Shown here in pieces: positions 31,250 through 42,724 of a stretch of DNA of 64,000 nucleotides. This stretch comes from Polyangiaceae bacterium (GTDB taxonomy: Bacteria > Myxococcota_A > Polyangia > Polyangiales > Polyangiaceae), in contig JACKEA010000011.1 in the NCBI GenBank assembly GCA_020633235.1, forward strand, positions 7,979 through 71,978, given 5' to 3'. The notes beneath the pieces are model-generated. The model had not been told where the DNA came from and did not search any database. It worked only from the letters and a program-made list of their open reading frames with translations. The position numbers and the translations under genes were made by a program. Each line of letters opens with the position of its first letter. The stretch's first letter is position 1.

Positions 31250-34021
31250 TCAACGCATGACGGGGATCCAGGTCACCTCGTAGGAGTCGGACCAGACCAC
31301 GCCCTGGTTCTGTTGGTAGAACAGCGGCTGAGACGGCGCGACAGTGTAGGGCAAGGCCTCGGGCGCTCGGAACAGGATGCGCTCATCTGTGGCATCCCCG
31401 CTGACGTCCGCGAAGATCGGAATGTCTCCGGGTGCTCCGAAGCTCACCGACGTTGACGTGCTGTTGCCCGTCTGCAGGTACAGCTTGCCTTCGTCTGGGC
31501 GGAAGAAGGCGAGCTTGTCGCCGCCGCTGTCGTGATGAATGCGCGGAATGTCGCCCTGCTTGCCAAACGGTATGAACGCGCTGAAGTTGAGATTCGACGT
31601 CTTGGCGATTTCCCACGTTCCGCCCTTGAACGTGATCAGGTCGTCGGCGCCATCGCCATCGAGGTCACCGGTGAGGGGGGTCGAGTCGAACTCGCCCACG
31701 GGTAGCTGGGCCAGGGTAGCGCTCTGCGTCTGGTCGCGGATGTACCAACGGCCGTGGGGGAAGTAGCTGTAGCGATCGAACACCGCCAGGTTCGCCTTGC
31801 CGTCCCCATCGAAGTCGAGAGCGATCGGAATGTCTCCGAACGACCCATAGGTGATTGTGCTCGTGGAACCATTCTGGAGGTTCTTGATCAGCCACTGAGT
31901 CGTGCTCGGGCGGTACACCACGAGCTCGGCGCGGGAATCTCCAACGATGTCCGCGGGACACGGAATGTCGCCGTCCTGTCCCCACTGGAAGAGATCCTCA
32001 CCACCACCGGAGTAGCGGATCTTCCACAGCCCGCCAAAGCCGCGGGAGGTGCGGTAGAGCGCGAAGTCCGCCTTGCCGTCGCCGTCGAAGTCCGACGAGC
32101 GCCCGCAGAAGTGGCGCGCGTTGATGACCTCGCCGAGCTCCATCAAGTCCGGCCGCGCGACGCGCGTGCGTTTGATGTAGGTCGTGCCGATGCCGTTTGG
32201 GTTCTGAGAGAGCAACGACGGCTCGAGGCGGATGTCTCGGATCGTGCTGTGTCGCCTCAACATGCGCCGCAGTTCCTTGGGCGTGAAGGCGCCGCCGTGG
32301 TTGTTGAACAGGATGCCCTCTAGGGCCACCATTGCACCGGTGACGATTGGCCCTGCCCCAGACGTTCCGCCGAAGGTGGAAGTGTAGAAGGTGTCTTCGG
32401 CGTTGGCGCTGTTGTAGAAGTCGCCGTACCCGGTGGTGACGATCTGCGAGTCGCCCTGTGCTTGCGCGTCGAAGCGGCTGCCGTAGGTCGAGAAGAACGC
32501 CCAGTAGGACGCCGGCACGTTGGCGCCTCCCGCTCCAACGAATACGGCGCCGGAGTCTTGGGCATTGACGCTCGCATTGACGTTGACCTCGTCATACATG
32601 GCGAACGCGCCCAGGAAGCCGGGCAGGTCGAGGTTGCAGCCGCCGTTGCCCCCAGTGGCGATCACGTGGCGCCCGTTTGCCGTGGCGAGCTTGACCGCGT
32701 CTTTGACCGCGGGGTCGTGCTCGGCGGGAACGAAGTCGGGCAGGGACGCCTGATTGTAGTCGGATGCCGCGATGTTGTCGCCGTTGCAGTCGAAACCGGC
32801 GAAGGTCTGCATCTCGATCAGGATCGCGCCGCCCGGCCAGAGATTGGCCGAGGCATTACTGACCGCAGCGGGACGATTGGGGCCGGTGGTCGGGAACTCG
32901 GTCGATAGGCGAACTTCGGCTTCCGATGTCAATCCGGTCACGCCGAAGCCGTTGTCTGCCGCGCTCAGAATGCCAGTGACGGCGGTGCCGTGATTGCGGA
33001 AGTCCGTGATGTTGATGCTGGAATGTGGAGTGCCGCTCACGAGGTTGCTGCTGCTGAGCGACGTGAGGTCTTGATGCGTGGTACGCCACGCGTACTCGAC
33101 GTCGCCATAGCCCGTGTTGGTCGCGTATGCGCCGAAGTAGGTCGCCTGCGCGTCGATGGCGTTGATGCCCCGGGGCCAATCTTGCGCGTAGTGCTGTAAA
33201 GGCGAGTAGTCTCCCGGGGGCGCCGGCGGCGGGGTCGGAATGCCGGGCGGATCGATCGAGCGTTGCACCTGAGGGTCGATGCCCTTCTCGAGCTTGGCGA
33301 CACGATCTGCATCGGGTACCGGGGCGTGTCGCGCCGCCTTCTGCAGGATCTCAGTAGCCTTTTGCCCTGCTTTCCCGAGCTCGGCAGACACGGGCAAGAA
33401 GCAGGGATAGGCGAGCTCCACGAGCGGGTTCTTGTTCAGCTCGTCGAGCAGCTGCGACATGTGCTCCGCATCCTTGGGCTCGACATAGGAGTAGAACCAG
33501 AGGTTGAGATCCGGAACGTCGCGGCCGGTCCTTGCTTGGCCCTCCGCGCGCGCCTTCTCCAGGTACTTCTCGCTGAGCTCGTGCATACGCACGCTGACCT
33601 TGTGGTCGTACTTGTCCAGCGTGGCGCGGACGGCATCGAGGGCCTTGAAGGCCGGCTCTCCCTCGACCTTGTCCTTCTCGATGGTGAGCTTCCCGCCACG
33701 AGAGCGCACGCCGGAACCGACCTTGAACTTGATCTGGATGCGGTTGTCCATCGCATCTCGGGCAAGCTCCTCGGGACCGAACGTCCGCTTGCGGAAGGAA
33801 TGGCTGGCCCATGGCAAGAGGCCGGTCTTGGGATCGGGCTCGTCGAAGCCGCTGGCGCCAACCACGGGCGTGGACTGCGCCGCAATGTCATCTGGATCGC
33901 TGGAGCGGTCCCCCGAGCAGCCGGAAAGGGATGCGGCGAAGCTCAACGCTGAGAAGAGTGCGAATTTACGAAGAAGTGTCACGAGAACTGTCCTCCTTTG
34001 AGTGAGGCCGCCGTTTAGCAA
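31250..34021 (-). CDS. S8 (subtilisin-like) serine peptidase lipoprotein with C-terminal FG-GAP/VCBS repeats
   Basis: Lipobox SLSGC. His motif NHGTAVTGIL and Ser motif GGTSGAGPIVTGA. Repeated DFDGDGKAD, DFDGDGKAN and GDLDGDGADD motifs. GC is lower than in neighbouring genes. Confidence 0.8.
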   Translation of the reverse strand: MLNGGLTQRRTVLVTLLRKFALFSALSFAASLSGCSGDRSSDPDDIAAQSTPVVGASGFDEPDPKTGLLPWASHSFRKRTFGPEELARDAMDNRIQIKFKVGSGVRSRGGKLTIEKDKVEGEPAFKALDAVRATLDKYDHKVSVRMHELSEKYLEKARAEGQARTGRDVPDLNLWFYSYVEPKDAEHMSQLLDELNKNPLVELAYPCFLPVSAELGKAGQKATEILQKAARHAPVPDADRVAKLEKGIDPQVQRSIDPPGIPTPPPAPPGDYSPLQHYAQDWPRGINAIDAQATYFGAYATNTGYGDVEYAWRTTHQDLTSLSSSNLVSGTPHSSINITDFRNHGTAVTGILSAADNGFGVTGLTSEAEVRLSTEFPTTGPNRPAAVSNASANLWPGGAILIEMQTFAGFDCNGDNIAASDYNQASLPDFVPAEHDPAVKDAVKLATANGRHVIATGGNGGCNLDLPGFLGAFAMYDEVNVNASVNAQDSGAVFVGAGGANVPASYWAFFSTYGSRFDAQAQGDSQIVTTGYGDFYNSANAEDTFYTSTFGGTSGAGPIVTGAMVALEGILFNNHGGAFTPKELRRMLRRHSTIRDIRLEPSLLSQNPNGIGTTYIKRTRVARPDLMELGEVINARHFCGRSSDFDGDGKADFALYRTSRGFGGLWKIRYSGGGEDLFQWGQDGDIPCPADIVGDSRAELVVYRPSTTQWLIKNLQNGSTSTITYGSFGDIPIALDFDGDGKANLAVFDRYSYFPHGRWYIRDQTQSATLAQLPVGEFDSTPLTGDLDGDGADDLITFKGGTWEIAKTSNLNFSAFIPFGKQGDIPRIHHDSGGDKLAFFRPDEGKLYLQTGNSTSTSVSFGAPGDIPIFADVSGDATDERILFRAPEALPYTVAPSQPLFYQQNQGVVWSDSYEVTWIPVMR

Positions 34022-34136
34022 TCCGCGTACCCACTCTCAGAGGGCGCTTTCCTGCGAGTTTCCGACCCAGCGTGGGTGTTCGCGAACGTGTGCGTCGTGT
34101 GCGCGCACTGCGCAGTGGGAGCCGTCGTGCGTTCGT

Positions 34137-34158
34137 GTGCGGCGCACGTGCGCCGCAC
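34137..34158. promoter_or_regulatory. 22-bp perfect palindrome (possible operator/UAS)
   Basis: GTGCGGCGCACGTGCGCCGCAC equals its own reverse complement. It is flanked by three CGTGTGCG copies (34087, 34096, 34134) and the 10-bp palindrome GTGCGCGCAC (34099-34108). Confidence 0.5.
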
Positions 34159-34202
34159 GGATCTCAGCAGGGAAACCGCGGGGAATTTCCATGGAAGGGC
34201 AG

Positions 34203-34218
34203 CGGCACGGGGGTTGCT
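34203..34218 (+). promoter_or_regulatory. candidate sigma-54 (-24/-12) promoter element
   Basis: cGGCACGggggTTGCT has GG (34204-5) and GC (34216-7) exactly 12 nt apart, against the consensus TGGCACG-N4-TTGCW. It lies only 18 nt upstream of ATG 34236, which is unusually close. Confidence 0.4.
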
Positions 34219-34235
34219 GAGGGGACCGCCACCCC

Positions 34236-34358
34236 ATGAAACCGTCCGACAAGAAGCCCGGGCTCGGCCCCACGACCTTCCGCATCAACCGCCGCGACTT
34301 CATGAAGCTGTCCGGCATCGGCGTTGGCGCTGCGCTCAGCCCCGGACTGGTGGGTTGC
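34236..34358 (+). other. predicted Tat signal peptide ending in lipobox Cys41
   Basis: NRRDFMK matches the (S/T)RRxFLK consensus. A moderately hydrophobic h-region follows (LSGIGVGAALSPGLVG), then Cys. Confidence 0.65.
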
Positions 34359-37300
34359 GCGACGGAAGTCGGCCCGACCCTCAAGTCCGGCTCGCTGGGG
34401 CGCGTGTTCGCGATCAGCGCCAAGCGCCCTCAGGACTTCCTCGAGCTGCGGTTCGAGTTCATCGGGCTGAAGCTCGATACCGCGAAGGAGAACCTGGTCA
34501 AGAACGGCGACGGACCGTTCGCGATCATCGTGCACTTCCCCTCTCAGCACATCCAAGAAGAGACCATCTTCGAGGAGCAGCCGCTGCCCGCGTACTACCC
34601 GCCGGTGGTTCAGACGGTGCTGAGCGGGCCGAGCCGCGTGGTTTTCACCGTCCCGGAGAACTTCACCCCGATCCCCTACAACTTGGACGGTCTGCTCACG
34701 GCGCTCAAGGATTTGCGCTTGAGTGTGGCAGCGACGGCGCTGCCCAAGGATCCGAACGCAGCGCCCTTGGGTGATGGCAGTGGTCTGGTCCTCACCTCTC
34801 AGCAGCAGTCCCAGCAGCTCAGCACGTCGACGCAACTCTCGCTCAGTAGAATGGGCACGAGCAGTGGTGTTTCCGTTGGATACGCCGCGGCCGGTTCCGA
34901 GCCCAGCATCAGCGTCAACCCAGGGCCGCCGGTTGCCCCGGAGCACACCGAAACCGCCATCGAGCTGCCCTATCGGCTGATCCTGTCACCGAACTCGCAT
35001 TCGGGTTTCACACACGCCGGATCGCCGGTGCAGTCCGGCAATCGTGTCGAGCTGTGGCATTCGCGGCTCGCGGTGTTCGACGGAGGATCGCTCCACGAAG
35101 GTTCGTCGTACTACCGCACGCTGCGCGCCATCTGGACGCGGGACAACGACAACCACGCCAACAACCCCTCCAACATCACCTTCGACGAGGCGCTGGACTT
35201 CGGTACGCGCCAGCACCTCGTCAATCAGCAAGCGAACTACACGGCGCTGATCAAGCCGCGGCCCGTCGACGCCAAGCAGCTGATGCTCACCAGCCTGGGT
35301 GGCTATCTGGACGTGCGCGGTGAGTGGGAAGACGACCAGCTGGTTTCGCTCTGGGAGCACAAGACGGCTCTCGGTCGCGACAACTTCGTCAAGGTTGCCT
35401 ACAACGGTTACCTGTACCCCTGCGGTCACCGCGCCACTCTCGTGGTGATCACCGAGCGCAAGCTCAAGCACCCCGACCAGCCGCACACGGCGTACCTCTA
35501 CAAGCGCTGCTACATCGTGTGCAAGGAACCGATTCGGCACTACCCGGGGGAGTGTCGCGACATTCCCTTCGAGTTCTTGCACGTTCGTCAGCTGGTCACG
35601 CCGCCCCTCGACGAGTGCCGCGTCTTCGACAAGCCCAAGCAAGGGGAGACGTTGCCCACGCCGCTCCCACTGCTGGTCAAGGTGGACGGCAAGCCCTACC
35701 GCTTTCCCGTCGAGGTGTTGGACCGAAACGAGCACCGCCACTTCTTCGGCATGCCCATGATGTGGATCCCGCTCGACAGCGGCACGGGCTACGCCATCGA
35801 GGCTGACGGCAGCAACTGGAACGCCGCCCACATCTACGCGAACGAGAAGTACGGCGGCGAGTCCTTCAACACCGTCGACATCAAGGGCCAGCGCTTCGGA
35901 TACGCACCCGAAGAGGAAGTGGACGACACCGTCTTCGAGACGCGATCGATGACCTTCAAGGCCGTGTCCGACGGGAGCAACGGCCACAAGCCCGGGTTCG
36001 GTCCCGGCCTGGTGCAGGCGACGGTGCAAGTCGAAGCGGTGCGGAGCTTGGGGGGCGCCGGCGGTCTCGCGGACGTCGTCTACGCGGCGCCGTACTTGAG
36101 CCAGGCCTTCACCGGCAGCAATGCGCAAGGCCAAGTGCTCTTGGAAGCCACGCCACCGGTGGATCTGTCCTTCTCCGGCAACAGCAAGAACAGCGGCGGC
36201 TTCATCCAGCCCGGCATCAAGATCACTGGGCTATCGCGCACCAAGGGCCCCATCGGCGGCGACGTCAATGCCTTTGCCGCTGGGCAGTTCAATGCCTCGT
36301 CGTTCTTCGATCAGATCGACGCTTACCTCTTCGGCTGCGTTTCGCTGAAGGACATCGTCGCGAGCACTGGCCTCGAAGGCGCACCGACGTTTGCTACGCA
36401 AGCGCTCGACGTGGTGGGCAGCGTCGTCCGGGACGCCAAACAGCTCGTTCAGTTGGCTGGTGTGCTGCCTATCTCACCGCCGCCAGTTCTGACGACGATC
36501 GCCAGCGGTGCCGACGCGTTCACCAGCATCAACCCGTCGCAGCTGACGCCGTTCTTCGATGACGTCGACACCCTGTCGCTGGGCGGATCGACCGATGGCG
36601 ATGTCCGCTTGCTCAAGCGAGTGACGGCCGACTTCCAACGCACGATCACTGACCCTGGCTTCAATGCGGCGCTCCAAGCGTTCAAGAACGCCCAGGAGCT
36701 CGCCAAGAACCAGACCGTGCGGCTGGAGTGGCGCCCCGAGCTGAAGGGCGACCCGTTCGGGTTCTTCGAGCCCCACCAGCCGATGCGCCTGTCCGTGGAG
36801 GCACGTGCCAAGGACCTGCCCGGAAAGCCAGCGGGCGTGGATCTGATCGCGGCGATTCCGGACTTCAACCTGAACCTGCTCGGGAACCAGGCCACCTTCA
36901 TGGTGCTCGAGTTCGACAGGCTCCAGTTCCGCGTGGTCAACGGCAAGAAGCCCGAGATCGACGTGATCTTCAAGAACATCGCTTTCGATGGCGTGCTGGC
37001 CTTCGTTCGGAAGCTGTCGGAGATCATTCCTCTGGAAGGCTTCAGTGATCCGCCGAACGTGGACGTCACCGAAGAAGGCCTGAAGGCCATGTTCACGCTG
37101 CCGCTGCCCAACTTGGCGGTGGGTATGTTCAGCCTGGAGAACATGGCGCTCTCGGCGGGGTTCCACATTCCTTTCTTCGGGCCGCCGATGACCGTGAACT
37201 TCGGCTTCTGCAGCCGAGAGTCACCCTTCCGTTTGACGGTCGCCATGCTCGGCGGCGGCGGCTTCTTCGGGCTGACCTGCTCACCCAACGGCATGGAGCT

Positions 37301-37700
37301 CCTGGAAGCGAGTCTCGAGTTCGGCGCCTCGCTGTCCGTCGACTTCGGGGTCGCCAGCGGCAGCATCTCGATCATGGCCGGCATCTACTTCGCGATGGGC
37401 CCGAAGACGGCCGAGCTCACCGGCTATCTGCGTGCCCGCGGTGAAGTGGACGTGCTGGGCCTCATCAGCGCGTCCATCGAGCTCTACATGGAGCTCAAGT
37501 ACGAGTTTTCGTCGCACAAGGTCACGGGCAAGGCGTCGATTGAAATCGAGGTCTCCGTGCTGTGCTTCAGCGGGACCGTGAAGATCAAGGCCGAGCGCAA
37601 GTTCGCCGGCGACAACGAAGACCCGACGTTGGCCGAGCTGATGGCGCCGATCGGCAACTACCACCCCTTCACCGAATACCTGAACGCTTTTGCGGCCTAG
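34236..37700 (+). CDS. giant uncharacterised protein (1154 aa) with twin-arginine signal and lipobox
   Basis: The long ORF has balanced amino-acid composition. The N-terminus is ...FRINRRDFMKLSGIGVGAALSPGLVGC. GAGGGGA lies upstream of the ATG. I recognise no family or catalytic motif. Confidence 0.8.
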   Translation: MKPSDKKPGLGPTTFRINRRDFMKLSGIGVGAALSPGLVGCATEVGPTLKSGSLGRVFAISAKRPQDFLELRFEFIGLKLDTAKENLVKNGDGPFAIIVHFPSQHIQEETIFEEQPLPAYYPPVVQTVLSGPSRVVFTVPENFTPIPYNLDGLLTALKDLRLSVAATALPKDPNAAPLGDGSGLVLTSQQQSQQLSTSTQLSLSRMGTSSGVSVGYAAAGSEPSISVNPGPPVAPEHTETAIELPYRLILSPNSHSGFTHAGSPVQSGNRVELWHSRLAVFDGGSLHEGSSYYRTLRAIWTRDNDNHANNPSNITFDEALDFGTRQHLVNQQANYTALIKPRPVDAKQLMLTSLGGYLDVRGEWEDDQLVSLWEHKTALGRDNFVKVAYNGYLYPCGHRATLVVITERKLKHPDQPHTAYLYKRCYIVCKEPIRHYPGECRDIPFEFLHVRQLVTPPLDECRVFDKPKQGETLPTPLPLLVKVDGKPYRFPVEVLDRNEHRHFFGMPMMWIPLDSGTGYAIEADGSNWNAAHIYANEKYGGESFNTVDIKGQRFGYAPEEEVDDTVFETRSMTFKAVSDGSNGHKPGFGPGLVQATVQVEAVRSLGGAGGLADVVYAAPYLSQAFTGSNAQGQVLLEATPPVDLSFSGNSKNSGGFIQPGIKITGLSRTKGPIGGDVNAFAAGQFNASSFFDQIDAYLFGCVSLKDIVASTGLEGAPTFATQALDVVGSVVRDAKQLVQLAGVLPISPPPVLTTIASGADAFTSINPSQLTPFFDDVDTLSLGGSTDGDVRLLKRVTADFQRTITDPGFNAALQAFKNAQELAKNQTVRLEWRPELKGDPFGFFEPHQPMRLSVEARAKDLPGKPAGVDLIAAIPDFNLNLLGNQATFMVLEFDRLQFRVVNGKKPEIDVIFKNIAFDGVLAFVRKLSEIIPLEGFSDPPNVDVTEEGLKAMFTLPLPNLAVGMFSLENMALSAGFHIPFFGPPMTVNFGFCSRESPFRLTVAMLGGGGFFGLTCSPNGMELLEASLEFGASLSVDFGVASGSISIMAGIYFAMGPKTAELTGYLRARGEVDVLGLISASIELYMELKYEFSSHKVTGKASIEIEVSVLCFSGTVKIKAERKFAGDNEDPTLAELMAPIGNYHPFTEYLNAFAA

Positions 37701-37715
37701 TCGCTAGAGGAACAA

Positions 37716-40700
37716 ATGGCGATAAAACCCACAGTTATCTGGACCGTTCTCCCCAAGTACGCCGAGGGGACCAAGCTGGTCTTCTCCGTGTTCGCGTCCT
37801 TTCGCTTGGGTGCGGGCGGAAATCTGCTCAGCGACTACAGCTTGGACAACTGGCCCAGTCGCGTGCTGCACCTGGCAGCGACGAGCGGGATCTCGGCGCA
37901 CTTCGACGCTCTGGGGGCATCCGTGCCCGTCTCCATCGACACCAGCCCGCTGCGCCCGGACATCTGGAACGAGCTGTTCAAGCCGAACACCTTGGTGCAC
38001 CCGTTTCAGTTCGAGGACAACAGCATCCGCCCACTGTTTTGCTATCCGGCGCATCAACTGCACGAGTACATCGAGCAGCTGTACACCACGATCGGCAACA
38101 TGAGCCCGAGCCAGTTCCCCGACCTGAACGCGCCCGGGCCGCTTCGCACCATGGTGGACTCGGTGGGGCACGTTCGGAACTCCGCCTACGACATCACCAA
38201 GCTGAACAAGTGGCGGCCGGGCCCGCATCCCGACGCCGAAGCCGAAGGGTACTATCAGAACCTGTCTTCGGCGGCACCGCTGCCCGCGTTCTACAACGCC
38301 TGGCGGTTCTATCACCGCACGCCGCCGGAGAAGTACGTCTCGCAGCGCAATCCGGTGAACCCGGCGGATGTGCCGCCGCCGATCAAGCCGCCCAGCTTCG
38401 ACTTCCACGAAGTGATCGCGGCGCTGGGAGATCATCCCCAGCTCATGCGCATGCTCGGCGTGGCCATCGATTGCAGCATCGATCTGGCGGCGCACGGCCT
38501 CTCGCCCTACTCCACTGATCGCCTGCGGGTGAAGGTCGGCTGGGCGGACAATGCCATTTTCGACCAGACACCGTGGACTCAATACGTGATCGATGCGGCC
38601 GGCTTCCGGGCGCAGGAGCGCAAGGGCACGGATCAAGCCCAAGGTGTGCTCTTGCTCGGCAACGAGGACTTCTTTCAAGTCGCCCAGATGGACGTCGACG
38701 GTAGCGTGCTGAAGACCATGGACTTCGCGTCCAACATGAAGATCTTGCTGAAGAAGAACGGCAGTAGCTCGAAACCCAATCCGCAGAGCCTGCCCGCCAA
38801 GCAGAATGGCGGCATCACCGTACTGCGCAAGAACCGCGACACGGCACTGACCGGCGCGTTCCAGAACCAGAAGGCGATCGACGGCAACCTCGCGGGCGAG
38901 ACCGTCTTCAGCAACGACGTCACGCGAGGCTACCGCGTGGACATGAAGGTCGATGGTCGCTGGCACTCCCTCAGTGCACGCCAGGGCGCCTTCAACATCG
39001 GTTCTCTTGGGACGGTCAAGGCCGAGCCCGACGAGGGCTACATCAAGGCGGCTTCCGCCACCAGTGTGCCCGACTCCGGCAATACCAATCCTCCCGACAT
39101 GTACATGCACGAGTCGGTATTTGGCTGGGAGAACTGGAGTCTCGTCGTGCCACGTCCCGGCAACAGCATCTCCTTCGATCGCGACGATACGAAGATGACG
39201 CAGACCCTCGCGATTCGCAAAGAACCGAACCTTCCGCCTTCGGAGTTTCCCCTGCAGCCGCAGATGGCGGCCGTGCCCGGCAGCTTGCCGCGTCTCCGCT
39301 TCGGCAAGAAGTACGAGGTGCGCGCTCGCGTGGTGGACATGGCGGGCAACAGCTTGCCGAACATGGACGGCGACTTCGGGGTGAACTGGGGACAGACCAA
39401 GGCCTTCGAGTACCTCCGTTATGATCCACTGTCTCCTCCGGTGCTCGTCATGCGCCAGCCGATCGGTTTGGCAGAGTCGGTCGAGCACCTGGTGATCCGC
39501 ACCAAGGTCAATTCATCGCTTCCCAGTGCGTTCGACAGCCAGTTCAACGGCGAGTGCCTGCGCTTCGTGGCCGCCCCGAAGTCATCGCAGTGGATGGCGG
39601 AGGTTCACGGCGCCTTCGATCCGCTCTTCAACGACCCGTTGAAGGCCTACGCGGTGGCGGCGAAGGAAGCGGGAACGTTCAACGATCCAACCCTGCCGGG
39701 TGTCGCCTTGATCGACATCGACGGCAACAAGCTGGCGTTCCCGAGCACCTTCAAGCGGGGCGACCCGCTGCCCAAGTCGACGTATTCGATCCAGACGGTG
39801 AGCACCCTCGATCTGCCCTACTTGCCCGATCCCCTGGCCATCGGCTGGGTGATCCAAGGCTTCCCGGGTCAACCCATGATCGAGCAGCTGTTCGACGGCC
39901 TGAAGGACTGGCCCAACTACAAGCCCTTCTCCCTCGAGCTCCGTTCGGGCAGCTCGGAGAGCTGGGCTAGCAGCATCTTCAAGACGGAAGTGAAGATCCC
40001 GAAGGGCACGCGAGTCACCGTCAAGATGAGCTCGGCCATCGCCAAGGAGAGCCTGCCGCTCCTGGCTCGCTATCAGAAGTTCAGCCCCGCCATGCAGAGC
40101 ACGGTGCAGAACAATCTGAACCAACACTGGATGATCACGCCCTGGCGCGAGGTGACCTTCGTGCATGCGGTGGAGAAGCCGCTGGCGGCGCCGGTGATCT
40201 ACCCGAAGATGGCGGCGTATCGCATGCCGGGGGACAACTTCGTGGAGCTCGATGGGGTGTTCCAGACCGCGCACCCGCAGTCGACCGGATCCATCGAGAT
40301 GCTGGCCAACTGGGTGGAGTACGAGGACCGGCTGACCGACCCTGCGCCCGCGCAGGAACCCCGCAATGCCTCCGTGTTCACCCGCGAGGTCGGCTACGAC
40401 GAGGGCAACGCGTTCTTCCCCAAGGGCACCAACGACGAACGCCCGCGCCAGGAGTTCGGAGATACGAAGCATCGCGTCATCGACTACACCCCCCGCGCGA
40501 CCACTCGCTATCGCGAGTACTTCAGCCCCGAGCTCTACAATCAGATCGATCTGATCACCGAGTCCGGCGCGCCCCTGGTCCGGAACATCCCGAGCTCGGC
40601 CCGGCCGGACGTGCCCGAGGTGCTGTACGTGATTCCGACCTTTCGCTGGGAAGACACCAGCCACGGTCGCAAGCGCATTGGTCGAGGCTTGCGCATCTAC

Positions 40701-41666
40701 TTGGACCGCCCCTGGTGGTCGTCGGGTGAAGGTGAGCTTCTGGCTGCCATCCTTCCGCGAGACAACGCTCCGGACGACAAGCTGCGGCGCTACATCTCCG
40801 AATGGGGCCGCGATCCGTCGTTTCACGGCAGCACTCCCAATGCGGAGGTCACCGCGGCGGACTTCATTCCCGTCTCCGGCGATCCGGAAGATCAGGTCAT
40901 CACCAATAGTGCGCCGCTCCAGCTCGAGGAGCTCATGCCTGCAGCCGCCAACGCCTATGAAGCGAAGTACGAGGTGAACGTGGCGGCCTTCGCGCCGCGC
41001 TACAACGCCGACCGAAGGCTGCACTACGTCGACATCGAAATGGACGCCAAGGGTGCATACTTCCCCTTCGTGCGCTTGGCCCTCGCGCGGTACCAGCCGG
41101 ACTCGCTTCCCCACCTGCACCTCTCCAAGGTCGTCCGCACCGAGTTCTCCCAGTTGGTGGCGGACCGGACAGCGACCCTGACGTACAAGAGCAACGCGGT
41201 GAAGGTGCTGCTCTCGGGTGTTGCTCCGCGCAGCGAGCTCGGCGACAGGATCGCGCCCATCGCCGCGCTCGGCAGCGGCGGCACCGGCACAGGCGGAGGC
41301 GGGGGCGGGGGCGGTGAACCCAGCCTTCAGGCGTTGGTGCCGAGCCTTGCCGCGGGCTCCGGCCGCTTGGTGGAAGCGAGCATCGAGCGCCGCGACTCGC
41401 CTTCAGAGGACTTCGGTTGGGTGCGCGTCGGCAACGTCGTCTCGCTGCCCTCGTTCGTGGAAGCCAACTCCACCGACGACGTCGTGTACTGGGGCGGGGA
41501 GCTGCCGCTGCCCACCACCTACCTGGACAAGGAGCACCGCTTGGTGATTCAAGAGTACGAGCTCTACGAAACGGATTCGCAGACGGCCGAGACCGTTCCA
41601 GTCATGAGCCCCGTCCCGCTGCGAAAGCGCCCCGTGTACACCGACATCTTTCCCCTCACCGTGTGA
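37716..41666 (+). CDS. giant uncharacterised protein (1316 aa), no signal peptide
   Basis: It starts 15 nt after the previous stop, with GAGGAA 5 nt upstream. Composition is balanced, with a Gly run (GSGGTGTGGGGGGGGE) near residue 1190. I recognise no family. Confidence 0.8.
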   Translation: MAIKPTVIWTVLPKYAEGTKLVFSVFASFRLGAGGNLLSDYSLDNWPSRVLHLAATSGISAHFDALGASVPVSIDTSPLRPDIWNELFKPNTLVHPFQFEDNSIRPLFCYPAHQLHEYIEQLYTTIGNMSPSQFPDLNAPGPLRTMVDSVGHVRNSAYDITKLNKWRPGPHPDAEAEGYYQNLSSAAPLPAFYNAWRFYHRTPPEKYVSQRNPVNPADVPPPIKPPSFDFHEVIAALGDHPQLMRMLGVAIDCSIDLAAHGLSPYSTDRLRVKVGWADNAIFDQTPWTQYVIDAAGFRAQERKGTDQAQGVLLLGNEDFFQVAQMDVDGSVLKTMDFASNMKILLKKNGSSSKPNPQSLPAKQNGGITVLRKNRDTALTGAFQNQKAIDGNLAGETVFSNDVTRGYRVDMKVDGRWHSLSARQGAFNIGSLGTVKAEPDEGYIKAASATSVPDSGNTNPPDMYMHESVFGWENWSLVVPRPGNSISFDRDDTKMTQTLAIRKEPNLPPSEFPLQPQMAAVPGSLPRLRFGKKYEVRARVVDMAGNSLPNMDGDFGVNWGQTKAFEYLRYDPLSPPVLVMRQPIGLAESVEHLVIRTKVNSSLPSAFDSQFNGECLRFVAAPKSSQWMAEVHGAFDPLFNDPLKAYAVAAKEAGTFNDPTLPGVALIDIDGNKLAFPSTFKRGDPLPKSTYSIQTVSTLDLPYLPDPLAIGWVIQGFPGQPMIEQLFDGLKDWPNYKPFSLELRSGSSESWASSIFKTEVKIPKGTRVTVKMSSAIAKESLPLLARYQKFSPAMQSTVQNNLNQHWMITPWREVTFVHAVEKPLAAPVIYPKMAAYRMPGDNFVELDGVFQTAHPQSTGSIEMLANWVEYEDRLTDPAPAQEPRNASVFTREVGYDEGNAFFPKGTNDERPRQEFGDTKHRVIDYTPRATTRYREYFSPELYNQIDLITESGAPLVRNIPSSARPDVPEVLYVIPTFRWEDTSHGRKRIGRGLRIYLDRPWWSSGEGELLAAILPRDNAPDDKLRRYISEWGRDPSFHGSTPNAEVTAADFIPVSGDPEDQVITNSAPLQLEELMPAAANAYEAKYEVNVAAFAPRYNADRRLHYVDIEMDAKGAYFPFVRLALARYQPDSLPHLHLSKVVRTEFSQLVADRTATLTYKSNAVKVLLSGVAPRSELGDRIAPIAALGSGGTGTGGGGGGGGEPSLQALVPSLAAGSGRLVEASIERRDSPSEDFGWVRVGNVVSLPSFVEANSTDDVVYWGGELPLPTTYLDKEHRLVIQEYELYETDSQTAETVPVMSPVPLRKRPVYTDIFPLTV

Positions 41667-41686
41667 GCTCGTAGGAGAACCGAACC

Positions 41687-41890
41687 ATGGCCGCAGGTCC
41701 CTGGCAGATTGCCATCGTCGTTTTGATACTGCTGGTGCTTTTCGGCGCTGGCCGCATCGCTTCCCTGGGTAAAGGCCTGGGCGAAGGGATCTCCAACTTC
41801 AAGAAGGGTCTCAAGGGCATCGAGGGCGAGCTCGAGGAAGTCGAAACCAAGAAGGTGCGCGGCAAACGCCGCAAGTCCGCGGCCGTGTGA
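41687..41890 (+). CDS. tatA: twin-arginine translocase subunit TatA/E
   Basis: 67 aa: WQIAIVVLILLVLFGAGRIASLGKGLGEGISNFKKGLK (TM segment, hinge Gly, amphipathic helix). AGGAGA RBS. It lies 20 nt after the giant gene. Confidence 0.9.
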   Translation: MAAGPWQIAIVVLILLVLFGAGRIASLGKGLGEGISNFKKGLKGIEGELEEVETKKVRGKRRKSAAV

Positions 41891-41930
41891 AACAGCTGTC
41901 CATCAGCGCGAGGCCGATGCGACACTCGCG

Positions 41931-42311
41931 TTGATGGAAATGTTCTTGGAGTGCGGTTGGCCGGCGTGGGCGGTCTTGCTGCTCGGACTCGTCTCTTTCG
42001 CGTTCAGCCTGGTCGCTTTGCTGCTCTCCTTCACGAAGAACCGCTTCGCCTTGGTGCTGGCCGTGCTCGCCTTCGGTATCACCCTGACGCCCGCGGCAAC
42101 CGGTGTGGTCGGCACCTACCTGGGGCGTAGCAAGGTGGACTCCGTCCTGGGCGTCGTGACGGCAGACCAGCGTGAGCGTCTCAAAGCGGTGGGCTACGCC
42201 GAAGCCGCACAATGCACCAAGCTGGGCCTCGGCTTCGGAGCACTACCCATGGTGCTCGGTCTCGCGGCCGTCGGGGTCGCCTTCGCGCGACGACCTCAGG
42301 GCGCCTCCTGA
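41931..42311 (+). CDS. small integral membrane protein (about 4 TM)
   Basis: 126-aa hydrophobic ORF, 40 nt downstream of tatA on the same strand. Confidence 0.6.
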   Translation: MMEMFLECGWPAWAVLLLGLVSFAFSLVALLLSFTKNRFALVLAVLAFGITLTPAATGVVGTYLGRSKVDSVLGVVTADQRERLKAVGYAEAAQCTKLGLGFGALPMVLGLAAVGVAFARRPQGAS

Positions 42312-42724
42312 CACGGCCTGCCGCCGGGCGCGTAGGTGCCTTGGAGGGAGTGGACATACTCGGCGACGTCCTCGAGCTCCTGTTCACGAAGCTGGACGCG
42401 CCACGAAACCATGCCCCTGGTCGGCACGCCCTCGGTGATGGTCTGCAAAATGCTCTGGCGGTCGCGGCCGTGGAGAAAGCAGTCGTCCGTCAGGTTGGGA
42501 CCAATGCGCCCTTGGGCGTGCTCGCCGTGGCATGGCGTGCAGCGCTTCTGGAAGATTGCCTGGCCTCGCGTGACGTCGCCCATGGTGCGCGCCGCCGGCG
42601 GCGGCGTGGGATCGCTTTCCATCGCGCTCGCGGTCGGGACCGCCACCACGGGCGGGGTCGTTGGTGTGGAGGCGGCACCCCCGCAGGCGATGACCGGAGC
42701 GGCTAGCAGGGCGACCCAGCGCAT
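42296..42724 (-). CDS. c-type cytochrome lipoprotein
   Basis: Lipobox PVIAC and heme motif CTPCHG. The sequence is similar to cbb3-oxidase subunit III-type domains. Confidence 0.8.
   Translation of the reverse strand: MRWVALLAAPVIACGGAASTPTTPPVVAVPTASAMESDPTPPPAARTMGDVTRGQAIFQKRCTPCHGEHAQGRIGPNLTDDCFLHGRDRQSILQTITEGVPTRGMVSWRVQLREQELEDVAEYVHSLQGTYAPGGRPCQEAP

Follow-up and report, generated by a model that had tools for sequence, protein, structure and literature searches.

A very large family of paired giant bacterial proteins, with a predicted Tat-lipoprotein variant encoded beside tatA in a Polyangiaceae genome

The pathway for twin-arginine translocation (Tat) can export proteins that lack a signal of their own. 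In the hitch-hiker systems, represented by FdnGH, HybOC and PaoABC, one subunit carries the twin-arginine signal, its signal-less partner is encoded next to it, and export follows assembly of the two in the cytoplasm (PMC4273604). No known Tat cargo exceeds FdnGH, at about 142 kDa (PMC13186574), and how large a cargo Tat can transport has yet to be established (PMC4273604). Tat substrate genes can also be linked to their own tat genes, as in the phoD-tatAd-tatCd cluster of B. subtilis (PMC3827258), and TatA paralogues can be biased towards particular substrates, as are TatA1 and TatA2 of C. jejuni (PMC4148689). Here we analyze a gene cluster in 64,000 nucleotides of DNA from a Polyangiaceae bacterium (contig JACKEA010000011.1, positions 7,979 to 71,978; hereafter the window), in which two giant genes, which we call A and B, are followed by a tatA gene. 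Our overall best explanation, to which we assign a probability of roughly 45%, is that A and B form a complex that is co-exported by Tat and held at the membrane by a lipid anchor on A, with the tatA of the same operon serving that export. We have very little doubt that A and B constitute a self-contained two-gene module with strict pairing, and the module has no detectable relationship to any characterized protein family.

Gene A (34236..37700, plus strand) begins with ATG and, according to the table of open reading frames (ORFs) and its translation, encodes 1154 amino acids, with a computed mass of 124.9 kDa for the precursor and 120.8 kDa from Cys41 onwards. Gene B (37716..41666, plus strand), also with an ATG start, encodes 1316 amino acids (145.6 kDa) with no signal peptide, and the computed masses of mature A and B add up to 266 kDa. 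The A-B junction (37701..37715, plus strand) comprises 15 nt with a GAGGAA ribosome-binding site and points to translational coupling; a further 20 nt containing AGGAGA separate B from tatA (41687..41890, plus strand), which encodes 67 amino acids. Both gaps and their ribosome-binding sites, as described in a first-pass annotation of this DNA, are readily read in the sequence, and a terminator scan found no terminator-like sites within A-B-tatA. Upstream of A, the 214-bp divergent intergenic region (34022..34235, no strand assigned) that separates it from a minus-strand S8 protease gene presumably holds the promoter; a scan of this region for the sigma-70 consensus, which is uninformative for a Myxococcota genome, gave no match. 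The first-pass annotation had also taken the two long ORFs to be genuine, and the hundreds to thousands of homologues, together with confident predicted folds, establish that A and B are real genes and not chance ORFs in GC-rich DNA.

The family to which the pair belongs is far larger than a view of this locus would suggest. An exhaustive profile search of 1.84 billion cluster representatives returned 6,710 family A clusters at 50% identity with E<=1e-3, 5,539 with E<=1e-10 and 3,641 with E<=1e-30. A word-indexed search recovered at least 238 proteins related to A and 39 related to B, almost all named 'hypothetical protein', and locus scans placed the module at no fewer than 172 sites in species-representative genomes and at least 493 in metagenomes. 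The hosts span at least ten phyla and include Actinomycetota (Streptomyces, Mycobacterium, Microbacterium, Micropruina, Nonomuraea), Alpha- and Betaproteobacteria (Rhodovulum, Litoreibacter, Sphingomonas, Pelomonas, Aquabacterium, Comamonas), Acidobacteriota, Chloroflexota, Verrucomicrobiota, Gemmatimonadota and Kapaibacteriota. By tblastn, the module was also found on megaplasmids or chromids of Cupriavidus metallidurans CH34, Rhizobium, Diaphorobacter, Streptomyces and the Bacillus cereus group. The same kind of search with A and B found no match in 50,697 phage genomes, and A-B was likewise without a match among the 2.9 million viral contigs of IMG/VR; a phage or prophage origin was rejected on this basis. 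The operon is thus not specific to its lineage but is one variant of a very large family whose members mostly have no signal peptide.

Pairing within this family is without exception in our data. When family hidden Markov models (HMMs) were run on six-frame translations, B lay directly after A on the same strand in 153/153 of the loci with at least 400 nt visible downstream of A, in full agreement with the earlier suggestion that the two genes would prove co-conserved and adjacent across genomes. The gap from the A stop to the B start has a median of about 4 nt, and 14/87 pairs overlap by 1, 4 or 8 nt. Clustering of the flanking ORFs from 81 loci revealed no conserved third gene: the largest cluster covered 11/81 loci and contained ordinary metabolic genes, which we attribute to lineage-local synteny. 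Since no other neighbor is conserved, the unit is A plus B and nothing else, and this, combined with the fixed A-then-B order and the tight or overlapping spacing, is characteristic of two subunits produced at a constant ratio for a single complex. We infer from this coupling that A and B are probably subunits of one complex.

The first reading of this DNA recognized no known family in either protein, and broader searches led to the same conclusion. Neither A nor B had a significant match in Pfam, NCBIfam, PADLOC or PHROGs, except for the Tat signal of A, and comparisons of predicted folds by Foldseek, discussed below, gave no specific match. Single-sequence queries of both proteins against PDB chain sequences matched nothing, nor did a family-profile query of B. 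The family profile of A did match PDB chains over residues 726-846 (apolipoproteins, designed helical bundles and the like; best E 7e-4), but we treated these matches as a reflection of amphipathic-helix or coiled-coil composition, being at the level of any amphipathic helix. Pfam and NCBIfam revealed no NTPase, nuclease or other effector domain in the approximately 2,500 residues, and the possibility that A and B are distant paralogues of each other was rejected (hhalign probability <1%). Full-text searches on Tat hitch-hikers, Tat lipoproteins and tatA paralogues found no account of the pair, although one may exist, the family having neither a name nor a domain by which to search. In our view the A/B module represents a new family with a new architecture, and the logic of its Tat export varies mechanisms already known (hitch-hiking, a lipoprotein with a Tat signal, a tatA linked to its substrate). 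With about 2,500 residues per pair in some 6,700 clusters, and no Pfam or NCBIfam model covering A or B, a family model would at one stroke annotate thousands of proteins now called "hypothetical", and would point to bacterial cell biology not yet described.

The export signal of A is well defined. Its signal peptide (residues 1-41; 34236..34358, plus strand) reads ...FRINRRDFMKLSGIGVGAALSPGLVGC / ...NRRDFMKLSGIGVGAALSPGLVGC, a twin-arginine motif (RR at 34290-34295) followed by a lipobox (LVGC at 34347-34358). The motif N-R-R-D-F-M-K and the LSGIGVGAALSPGLVG that follows it fit S/T-R-R-x-F-L-K and a moderately hydrophobic h-region, while L-V-G-C, residues 38-41, fits the lipobox pattern [LVI][ASTVI][GAS]C. 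The Tat-signal model TIGR01409 scores 17.2 bits on A (cutoff 16.7) and Pfam TAT_signal scores 13.8, under its cutoff of 22.7. R19, R20 and C41 are invariant in 12/12 closest relatives, and the subfamily consensus is RRxFLK. These observations uphold the twin-arginine signal and lipobox Cys first noticed by eye, and they make Tat-lipoprotein targeting of A in this Myxococcota clade highly probable.

Across the family, 70 of 254 gene-called A proteins have a Tat-type signal, 183 have no signal, one has an ambiguous hydrophobic N-terminus, and none has a clear Sec signal; a lipobox follows the Tat-type signal in 19/70. The signal-less A proteins, about 72% of the total, include those of Gram-negative Proteobacteria and Bacillus. 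Tat-type A proteins occur in several clades, with approximately 10 changes of state on a rough neighbor-joining tree, and take three forms: a short lipoprotein, a short form without the Cys, and a long form with a further 400-550 amino acids after the signal. The copy described here has the short lipoprotein form and lies within a coherent clade of 10 lineages. The absence of a signal sequence from B, also remarked on at the outset, holds throughout, as a signal was found in 0/39 B proteins and in none of 87 B N-termini read from loci; B always starts with the conserved '(I/F)WTxLPxG...LSVFVSPRL', which stays signal-less in Tat-type loci as well. Tat-type export signals thus appear to have been acquired repeatedly across the family, and always on A. 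Among exported bacterial proteins generally, Sec signals far outnumber Tat signals. That A nonetheless uses Tat repeatedly and exclusively suggests that the cargo must exit folded, most simply already bound to B.

The long form of A (about 1,500-1,950 amino acids; L007, L092, L093, L122, L124-L126, L145, L151, L165, L167; P0015, P0018, P0039-P0050 and others) has features of its own. A conserved 'R-L-N-L-x-A-L-R' stands about 40 residues before the twin arginines and could be either a chaperone-binding site or an artefact of start-codon calling. The extra domain of 400-550 amino acids after the signal is itself conserved ('RVAF..GGKERWVID.RRF.G.P').

Taken as an export system, the pair is similar to HybOC, FdnGH, DmsAB and PaoABC in that the signal is on A only, with B always adjacent and signal-less. 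The described hitch-hikers are redox enzymes that contain cofactors and do not exceed 142 kDa (PMC13186574). A·B, unlike these, has no cofactor motif or enzyme domain, would amount to 266 kDa and would be lipid-anchored, its majority form is not exported, and its co-export is deduced from the arrangement of genes and signals. A hitch-hiking Tat heterodimer was the model first put forward for this locus, and the comparison across the family strengthens it: Tat signals are always on A and never on B, and clear Sec signals are absent. Most of the family, however, is signal-less. In our judgement, co-export of B with A has slightly better than an even chance of being correct.

One alternative is that A is exported by itself and that B either stays in the cytoplasm as a folding, assembly or proofreading partner of A or acts separately. 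This would bring the cargo down to about 121 kDa, near the top of the known Tat range, where 266 kDa would be unprecedented (PMC13186574), and it would dispense with a stable A·B complex, the case for which is indirect. However, B is just as obligatory in the approximately 72% of lineages without an exported A, and a protein that is obligatory beside signal-less A is not a Tat-specific chaperone. B is also larger than A, highly structured and conserved over its full length, unlike known chaperones of the redox enzyme maturation protein (REMP) type, and the use of Tat but never Sec on A would need some other cause, for example obligate cytoplasmic folding of A. We therefore consider export of A without B unlikely.

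The 67-amino-acid ORF after B was correctly recognized as tatA in the first-pass annotation: it matches Pfam TatA_B_E at E=5e-14 and reaches 53.7 bits with TIGR01411 (cutoff 53.9). C. jejuni TatA2 is degenerate, lacking equivalents of Gln8, the F-G hinge and Phe39 (PMC4148689). The TatA encoded here is not degenerate, and the equivalents of E. coli Gln8, the F-G hinge and Phe39 can all be read from its sequence. An adjacent, co-oriented tatA was found in 5/27 Tat-type lineages compared with 0/118 signal-less ones (Fisher p = 1.6e-4), or 4/15 compared with 0/83 when only fully observable loci are counted; the first 80 genome loci, almost all of them signal-less, have no adjacent tatA. The order is A-B-tatA at this locus, in L084 (63% identity) and in L133, and tatA-A-B in L085 (43% identity) and the long-form L122, so that the five linked lineages show three arrangements in two distant clades, with four of them in one clade. 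As in phoD-tatAd-tatCd, the substrate genes and tatA lie in one co-oriented cluster, and do so recurrently; unlike that cluster, there is no tatC here and the linkage is facultative (5/27 lineages). Within the 64-kb window, searches with seed sequences found neither a tatB nor a tatC, and no tatA besides this one. The proposed place of tatA in the operon is therefore only partly upheld: the link to Tat-type modules is real but facultative, involving about a fifth to a quarter of the Tat-type lineages.

It might still be that the adjacency has no meaning and that a housekeeping tatA happens to adjoin the module in a few related genomes. The TatA has a canonical sequence, neither tatB nor tatC is found nearby, most Tat-type modules have no tatA, all but one of the five linked cases fall in a single clade, and a stand-alone tatA is the norm in related metagenome-assembled genomes (MAGs). 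The contrast between Tat-type and signal-less lineages speaks against mere coincidence, as do the presence of tatA both after B and before A within one clade and the position of the fifth case, L122, in a distant long-form clade. In addition, the genes beyond tatA are not common to this locus, L084 and L085, and since these flanks differ, inherited synteny alone is not the explanation. We find a meaningless adjacency doubtful, and see the chances that this tatA is functionally tied to the A-B cargo as evenly balanced. The gene may be either a dedicated paralogue, as the first-pass annotation proposed, or the genome's sole copy. Among unlinked TatA homologues, the nearest (54-55% identity) are encoded by stand-alone genes that adjoin ubiA in Polyangiaceae MAGs. 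Two such loci (L170, 5210-6377; L171, 9001-10151) have a conserved Ser/Thr-kinase … tatA-ubiA arrangement with no tatB or tatC nearby, and a stand-alone tatA beside a UbiA prenyltransferase gene seems typical of the Polyangiaceae group.

Structure predictions offer some indication of what the two proteins might do. AlphaFold2 models computed with family alignments reached a predicted local distance difference test (pLDDT) of 83.3 and a predicted template-modeling score (pTM) of 0.72 for A, and 88.5 and 0.75 for residues 1-1180 of B; the C-terminal domain of B lies outside the model. Residues 1-53 of A have pLDDT <50, matching the expectation for a signal peptide. They are followed by a beta-rich N-terminal and central body (residues 57-720; 34404..36395, plus strand), delimited by the model and the family alignment and conserved in all homologues, by a variable helical linker (residues 726-817; 36411..36686, plus strand), helical in the model and marking a break between conserved alignment blocks, and by a C-terminal beta-meander (residues 825-1123; 36708..37604, plus strand), which is modeled as strands and is the most conserved part of family A. 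Relatives of A align over their full length, with the break at the linker, whose length varies and which serves as an insertion site: P0098 has a long, apolipoprotein-like coiled coil there, and P0103 a CBM_4_9 carbohydrate-binding module. In the family alignment, the body has the invariant residues E243, H260, E272, W274, H275, R381, D382 and R408, which could form a putative binding or catalytic pocket.

The meander is built from strands of 11-18 residues joined by turns of 2-4 residues, with an identity between phyla of 55-70%, by far the highest within family A, and with the motifs FCTRExPF, GGGGFFG, DFGVASGS, RGEVDVLGLISASIELY and ERKFAG. Its strands are strictly two-faced family-wide: mean Kyte-Doolittle values are about +3 on one face and about -1 to -2 on the opposite one, a predicted pattern that would fit a sandwich, a membrane-facing sheet or a groove for lipid equally well. 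B is predicted to consist mostly of beta-sandwich domains in series, with some helical inserts, and has numerous invariant Trp, Arg and Pro positions in the family alignment. The Gly hinge already noticed in B proved to be residues 1186-1201 (41271..41318, plus strand), and the domain of about 115 amino acids behind it (41319-41663, plus strand) is conserved in the family consensus.

Neither fold leads to a described protein. Foldseek found no match for the A model in the PDB at E<=1e-3. The C-terminal 300 residues of A are like porins, LptD, BamA/FhaC, MTP and LmeA/TULIP proteins in forming a long antiparallel meander with one hydrophobic face, and among the weak matches are porins, LptD, FhaC and MTP, with a Foldseek probability of up to 0.98 for porins; template-modeling (TM) scores are at most 0.30 and root-mean-square deviations (rmsd) 17-24 Å. 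An outer-membrane beta-barrel was rejected on these values, and also because the turns are short at both strand ends and there is no aromatic beta-signal (the protein ends in ...NAFAA). Signal-less proteins from monoderm Actinomycetota and Bacillus conserve the domain just as well, which likewise counts against such a barrel. An LmeA- or AsmA-like identity was dismissed as well, with Pfam LmeA at E=0.093 and 13.2 bits (cutoff 27.3) and no AsmA/TamB match.

For B, Foldseek returned from the PDB only strings of macroglobulin (MG), FN3 or Ig domains (C3b, alpha-2-macroglobulin, arrestin), with TM <=0.13 for the long alignments, and from BFVD only FN3-rich phage minor tail proteins (TM <=0.27). 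B thus has some likeness to the alpha-2-macroglobulin/C3 group, its best PDB fold matches being chains of C3b/C3c, alpha-2-macroglobulin and TEP1, all of them beta-sandwich strings. Bacterial alpha-2-macroglobulins are giant periplasmic lipoproteins; here, unlike in those proteins, the lipoprotein of the pair is A and not B. We rejected B as an alpha-2-macroglobulin or thioester protein, since TM is <=0.13 with rmsd >40 Å, there is no A2M or MG Pfam domain and no CxEQ motif, and B has 3 Cys. The Foldseek resemblances of both proteins, at TM <=0.3, are generic to beta-meanders and beta-sandwiches and were not taken as homology.

We can nevertheless present a rough proposal for the Tat co-export of A and B. 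The two proteins would fold and associate in the cytoplasm and would cross the inner membrane jointly via the Tat translocase, with B as the hitch-hiker. A would then be lipidated on Cys41, tethering the complex of about 266 kDa to the periplasm-facing membrane surface, and the co-transcribed tatA would raise or time the supply of TatA for this outsize cargo. The complex would be non-enzymatic, binding to or acting on a membrane, with the beta-meander of A as the proposed working core and the helical linker of A and the beta-sandwich string of B as proposed binding or scaffold parts. The A-B pair in this lineage may be the largest folded cargo yet proposed for Tat; if this is true, Tat would move a pre-assembled cargo about twice the largest known. 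The pathway has apparently been chosen repeatedly for a cargo of between 121 kDa (A alone) and 266 kDa (A·B). The Tat-type variants make the question of the Tat size limit directly testable, and the operon tatA in some lineages would be a natural experiment on TatA dosage versus cargo size.

Several considerations weigh against this proposal. A cargo of 266 kDa is nearly twice the 142 kDa of FdnGH (PMC13186574), which makes co-export an extrapolation, and the binding of A to B is deduced from pairing and coupling. With about 72% of A proteins signal-less, the ancestral site of action may be the cytoplasm, which is awkward for an envelope function, and any functional model must also suit forms that are apparently cytoplasmic or released by lysis. 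Either the signal-less forms are freed through lysis or leave by some undescribed route, or the complex works on membranes or other targets from whichever side it occupies. Two-faced strands are equally seen in an ordinary beta-sandwich, and the porin and lipid-transfer matches of A are as weak as stated above (TM <=0.30, rmsd 17-24 Å). As for tatA, 11/15 of the fully observable Tat-type modules have none adjacent, and with a canonical TatA and stand-alone tatA genes normal in related MAGs, the present gene may be the housekeeping copy.

For the function of A-B we favor a binding or membrane-active role, in view of the lack of an enzyme domain, the conserved two-faced meander, the variable binding inserts and the beta-sandwich partner, but this part of the proposal is tentative and in itself no better than possible. 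Its most concrete version is binary-toxin-like; the toxin, adhesin or predation-factor functions suggested when the locus was first read are speculation. A and B would be a two-component, protein-only toxin, pore-forming or membrane-damaging, directed against competitors, prey or hosts. Signal-less forms would be released by lysis, like Tc and Cry toxins, and the predatory Myxococcota and some Bacteroidota-like lineages would export theirs by Tat, with the lipid anchor steering it to the outer membrane or into vesicles. Such a toxin would be one particular form of the membrane-active layer and does not compete with the export model. The broad and patchy distribution would suit it, with copies on megaplasmids or chromids (Bacillus cereus group, Rhizobium, Cupriavidus, Streptomyces), and so would the self-contained two-gene unit, a G+C content below that of the flanks, binding modules (CBM_4_9, Big_2 or LRR-like) at variable insertion sites, and a conserved amphipathic beta-meander in A that could insert into membranes. 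In contrast, no toxin family or fold was matched (Tc, MACPF/CDC, aerolysin/ETX-MTX2, Cry, RHS, RTX), no lysis cassette, immunity or secretion genes are conserved nearby, and many copies sit amid housekeeping or metabolic genes. On balance we think a binary toxin rather unlikely.

The comparison with Tc (ABC) toxins deserves particular mention, as two members have been auto-named after a TcA domain by UniProt. P0099 and P0106, both from Herbiconiux, bear the name 'Tc toxin complex TcA C-terminal TcB-binding domain-containing protein', which would favor a toxin if it could be reproduced. It could not: neither A nor the Herbiconiux members have a Pfam TcA match (including PF18276) at E<=10, and an identity with TcA was rejected. 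Its source may be a different InterPro member database, or the label may be a mis-annotation with the potential to spread. The pair is like Tc toxins in that giant signal-less, multi-subunit proteins are encoded side by side, sometimes on plasmids, with variable inserts of receptor-binding type. However, no TcA was found when sequences or folds were compared with the PDB; RHS/YD repeats are absent from B, which is a string of beta-sandwiches; and A is under half the size of TcA and beta-rich, whereas the shell and channel of TcA are alpha-helical.

A third possibility is that the core role of the family is intracellular, as an anti-phage or abortive-infection module or as a structure associated with the nucleoid, granules or lipid droplets, and that the Tat clades represent a secondary re-use. 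Most members are signal-less, some have histone-H1-like Lys/Ala/Pro repeats at the N-terminus, a Bacillus megaplasmid copy sits among HNH endonuclease, helicase and HD-domain genes, and the helical linker has weak apolipoprotein-like matches. These last are at the level of any amphipathic helix, however, and a known anti-phage defence system was rejected as a candidate, there being no PADLOC match and the neighbors being mostly metabolic or housekeeping genes, with one Bacillus plasmid as the exception. The absence of NTPase, nuclease and effector domains also speaks against such a role, as does the absence of the module from the 50,697 phage genomes and 2.9 million viral contigs searched, and for the copy at this locus the invariant Tat-lipobox signal contradicts a cytoplasmic site. 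We judge an intracellular core role quite improbable.

The proposal of Tat co-export can also be extended to the family as a whole. A-B, one of the larger protein families still without annotation, would then be a new kind of non-enzymatic two-subunit machine that has to be assembled in the cytoplasm, and for which Tat, and never Sec, was recruited repeatedly by lineages needing it outside the cell, sometimes with an extra tatA. The cargo would amount to about 270 kDa, and in the long forms to over 330 kDa; once exported and lipid-anchored, it would act on another membrane through the meander of A by a mechanism unlike those of described toxins and transporters. We put this forward as an improbable possibility.

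Some individual members of the family are worth noting. In some lineages (P0102 and P0120; L057 and L041), the signal-less A has histone-H1-like Lys/Ala/Pro N-terminal repeats with weak Pfam HC2 and Extensin matches, a composition that points to nucleic acid, or some other polyanion, as a ligand there. The Bacillus tropicus plasmid pBEMB20-1 (L087, 8809-16454) encodes an A+B pair of 1093 + 1434 amino acids, both named 'hypothetical', with two HNH endonuclease genes and genes for DNA/RNA helicase-domain, HD-domain and DUF4143 proteins as neighbors, a defence- or mobile-island-like setting unlike that of most loci. On a contig from a long-read metagenome (L085, 11833-15890), B is split into at least three ORF calls (671, 224 and 146 amino acids) while the HMM covers B end to end; the split probably reflects assembly frameshifts and not a pseudogene. 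In the longest family members, only Big_2 was found as an accessory domain, and a 310-amino-acid 'extension' of P0263 was set aside as frameshift read-through. Accessory modules of extracytoplasmic binding type comprise CBM_4_9 in P0103, which is Tat-type, and LRR-like repeats with Big_2 in P0250, for which an export signal is not established.

The first-pass annotation had counted a small membrane protein with four transmembrane segments as a further member of the operon. Its gene, called from ATG 41934 (41934..42311, plus strand; 125 amino acids), has no significant family match in Pfam or NCBIfam, and a minus-strand cytochrome c gene call (approximately 42296-42724) overlaps its 3' end. Apart from copies of the same contig, no homologue occurs in about 170 related loci; the gene is not conserved with the module, and we exclude it as a fourth component.

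The genes surrounding the cluster are of housekeeping type (S8 and S41 proteases, cytochrome c, pcnB). The S8 gene (31250-34021, minus strand), divergent from A, encodes a 923-amino-acid subtilase with FG-GAP repeats, whose N-terminus resembles a lipoprotein signal (…SFAASLSGC); it is kept in other copies of the same contig and absent beside A-B in other lineages. G+C content is 0.63-0.65 at 32001-42000 and 0.67-0.72 in the flanks, 3-7 points higher; the dip takes in the protease gene together with A, B and tatA, and may be a trace of horizontal acquisition.

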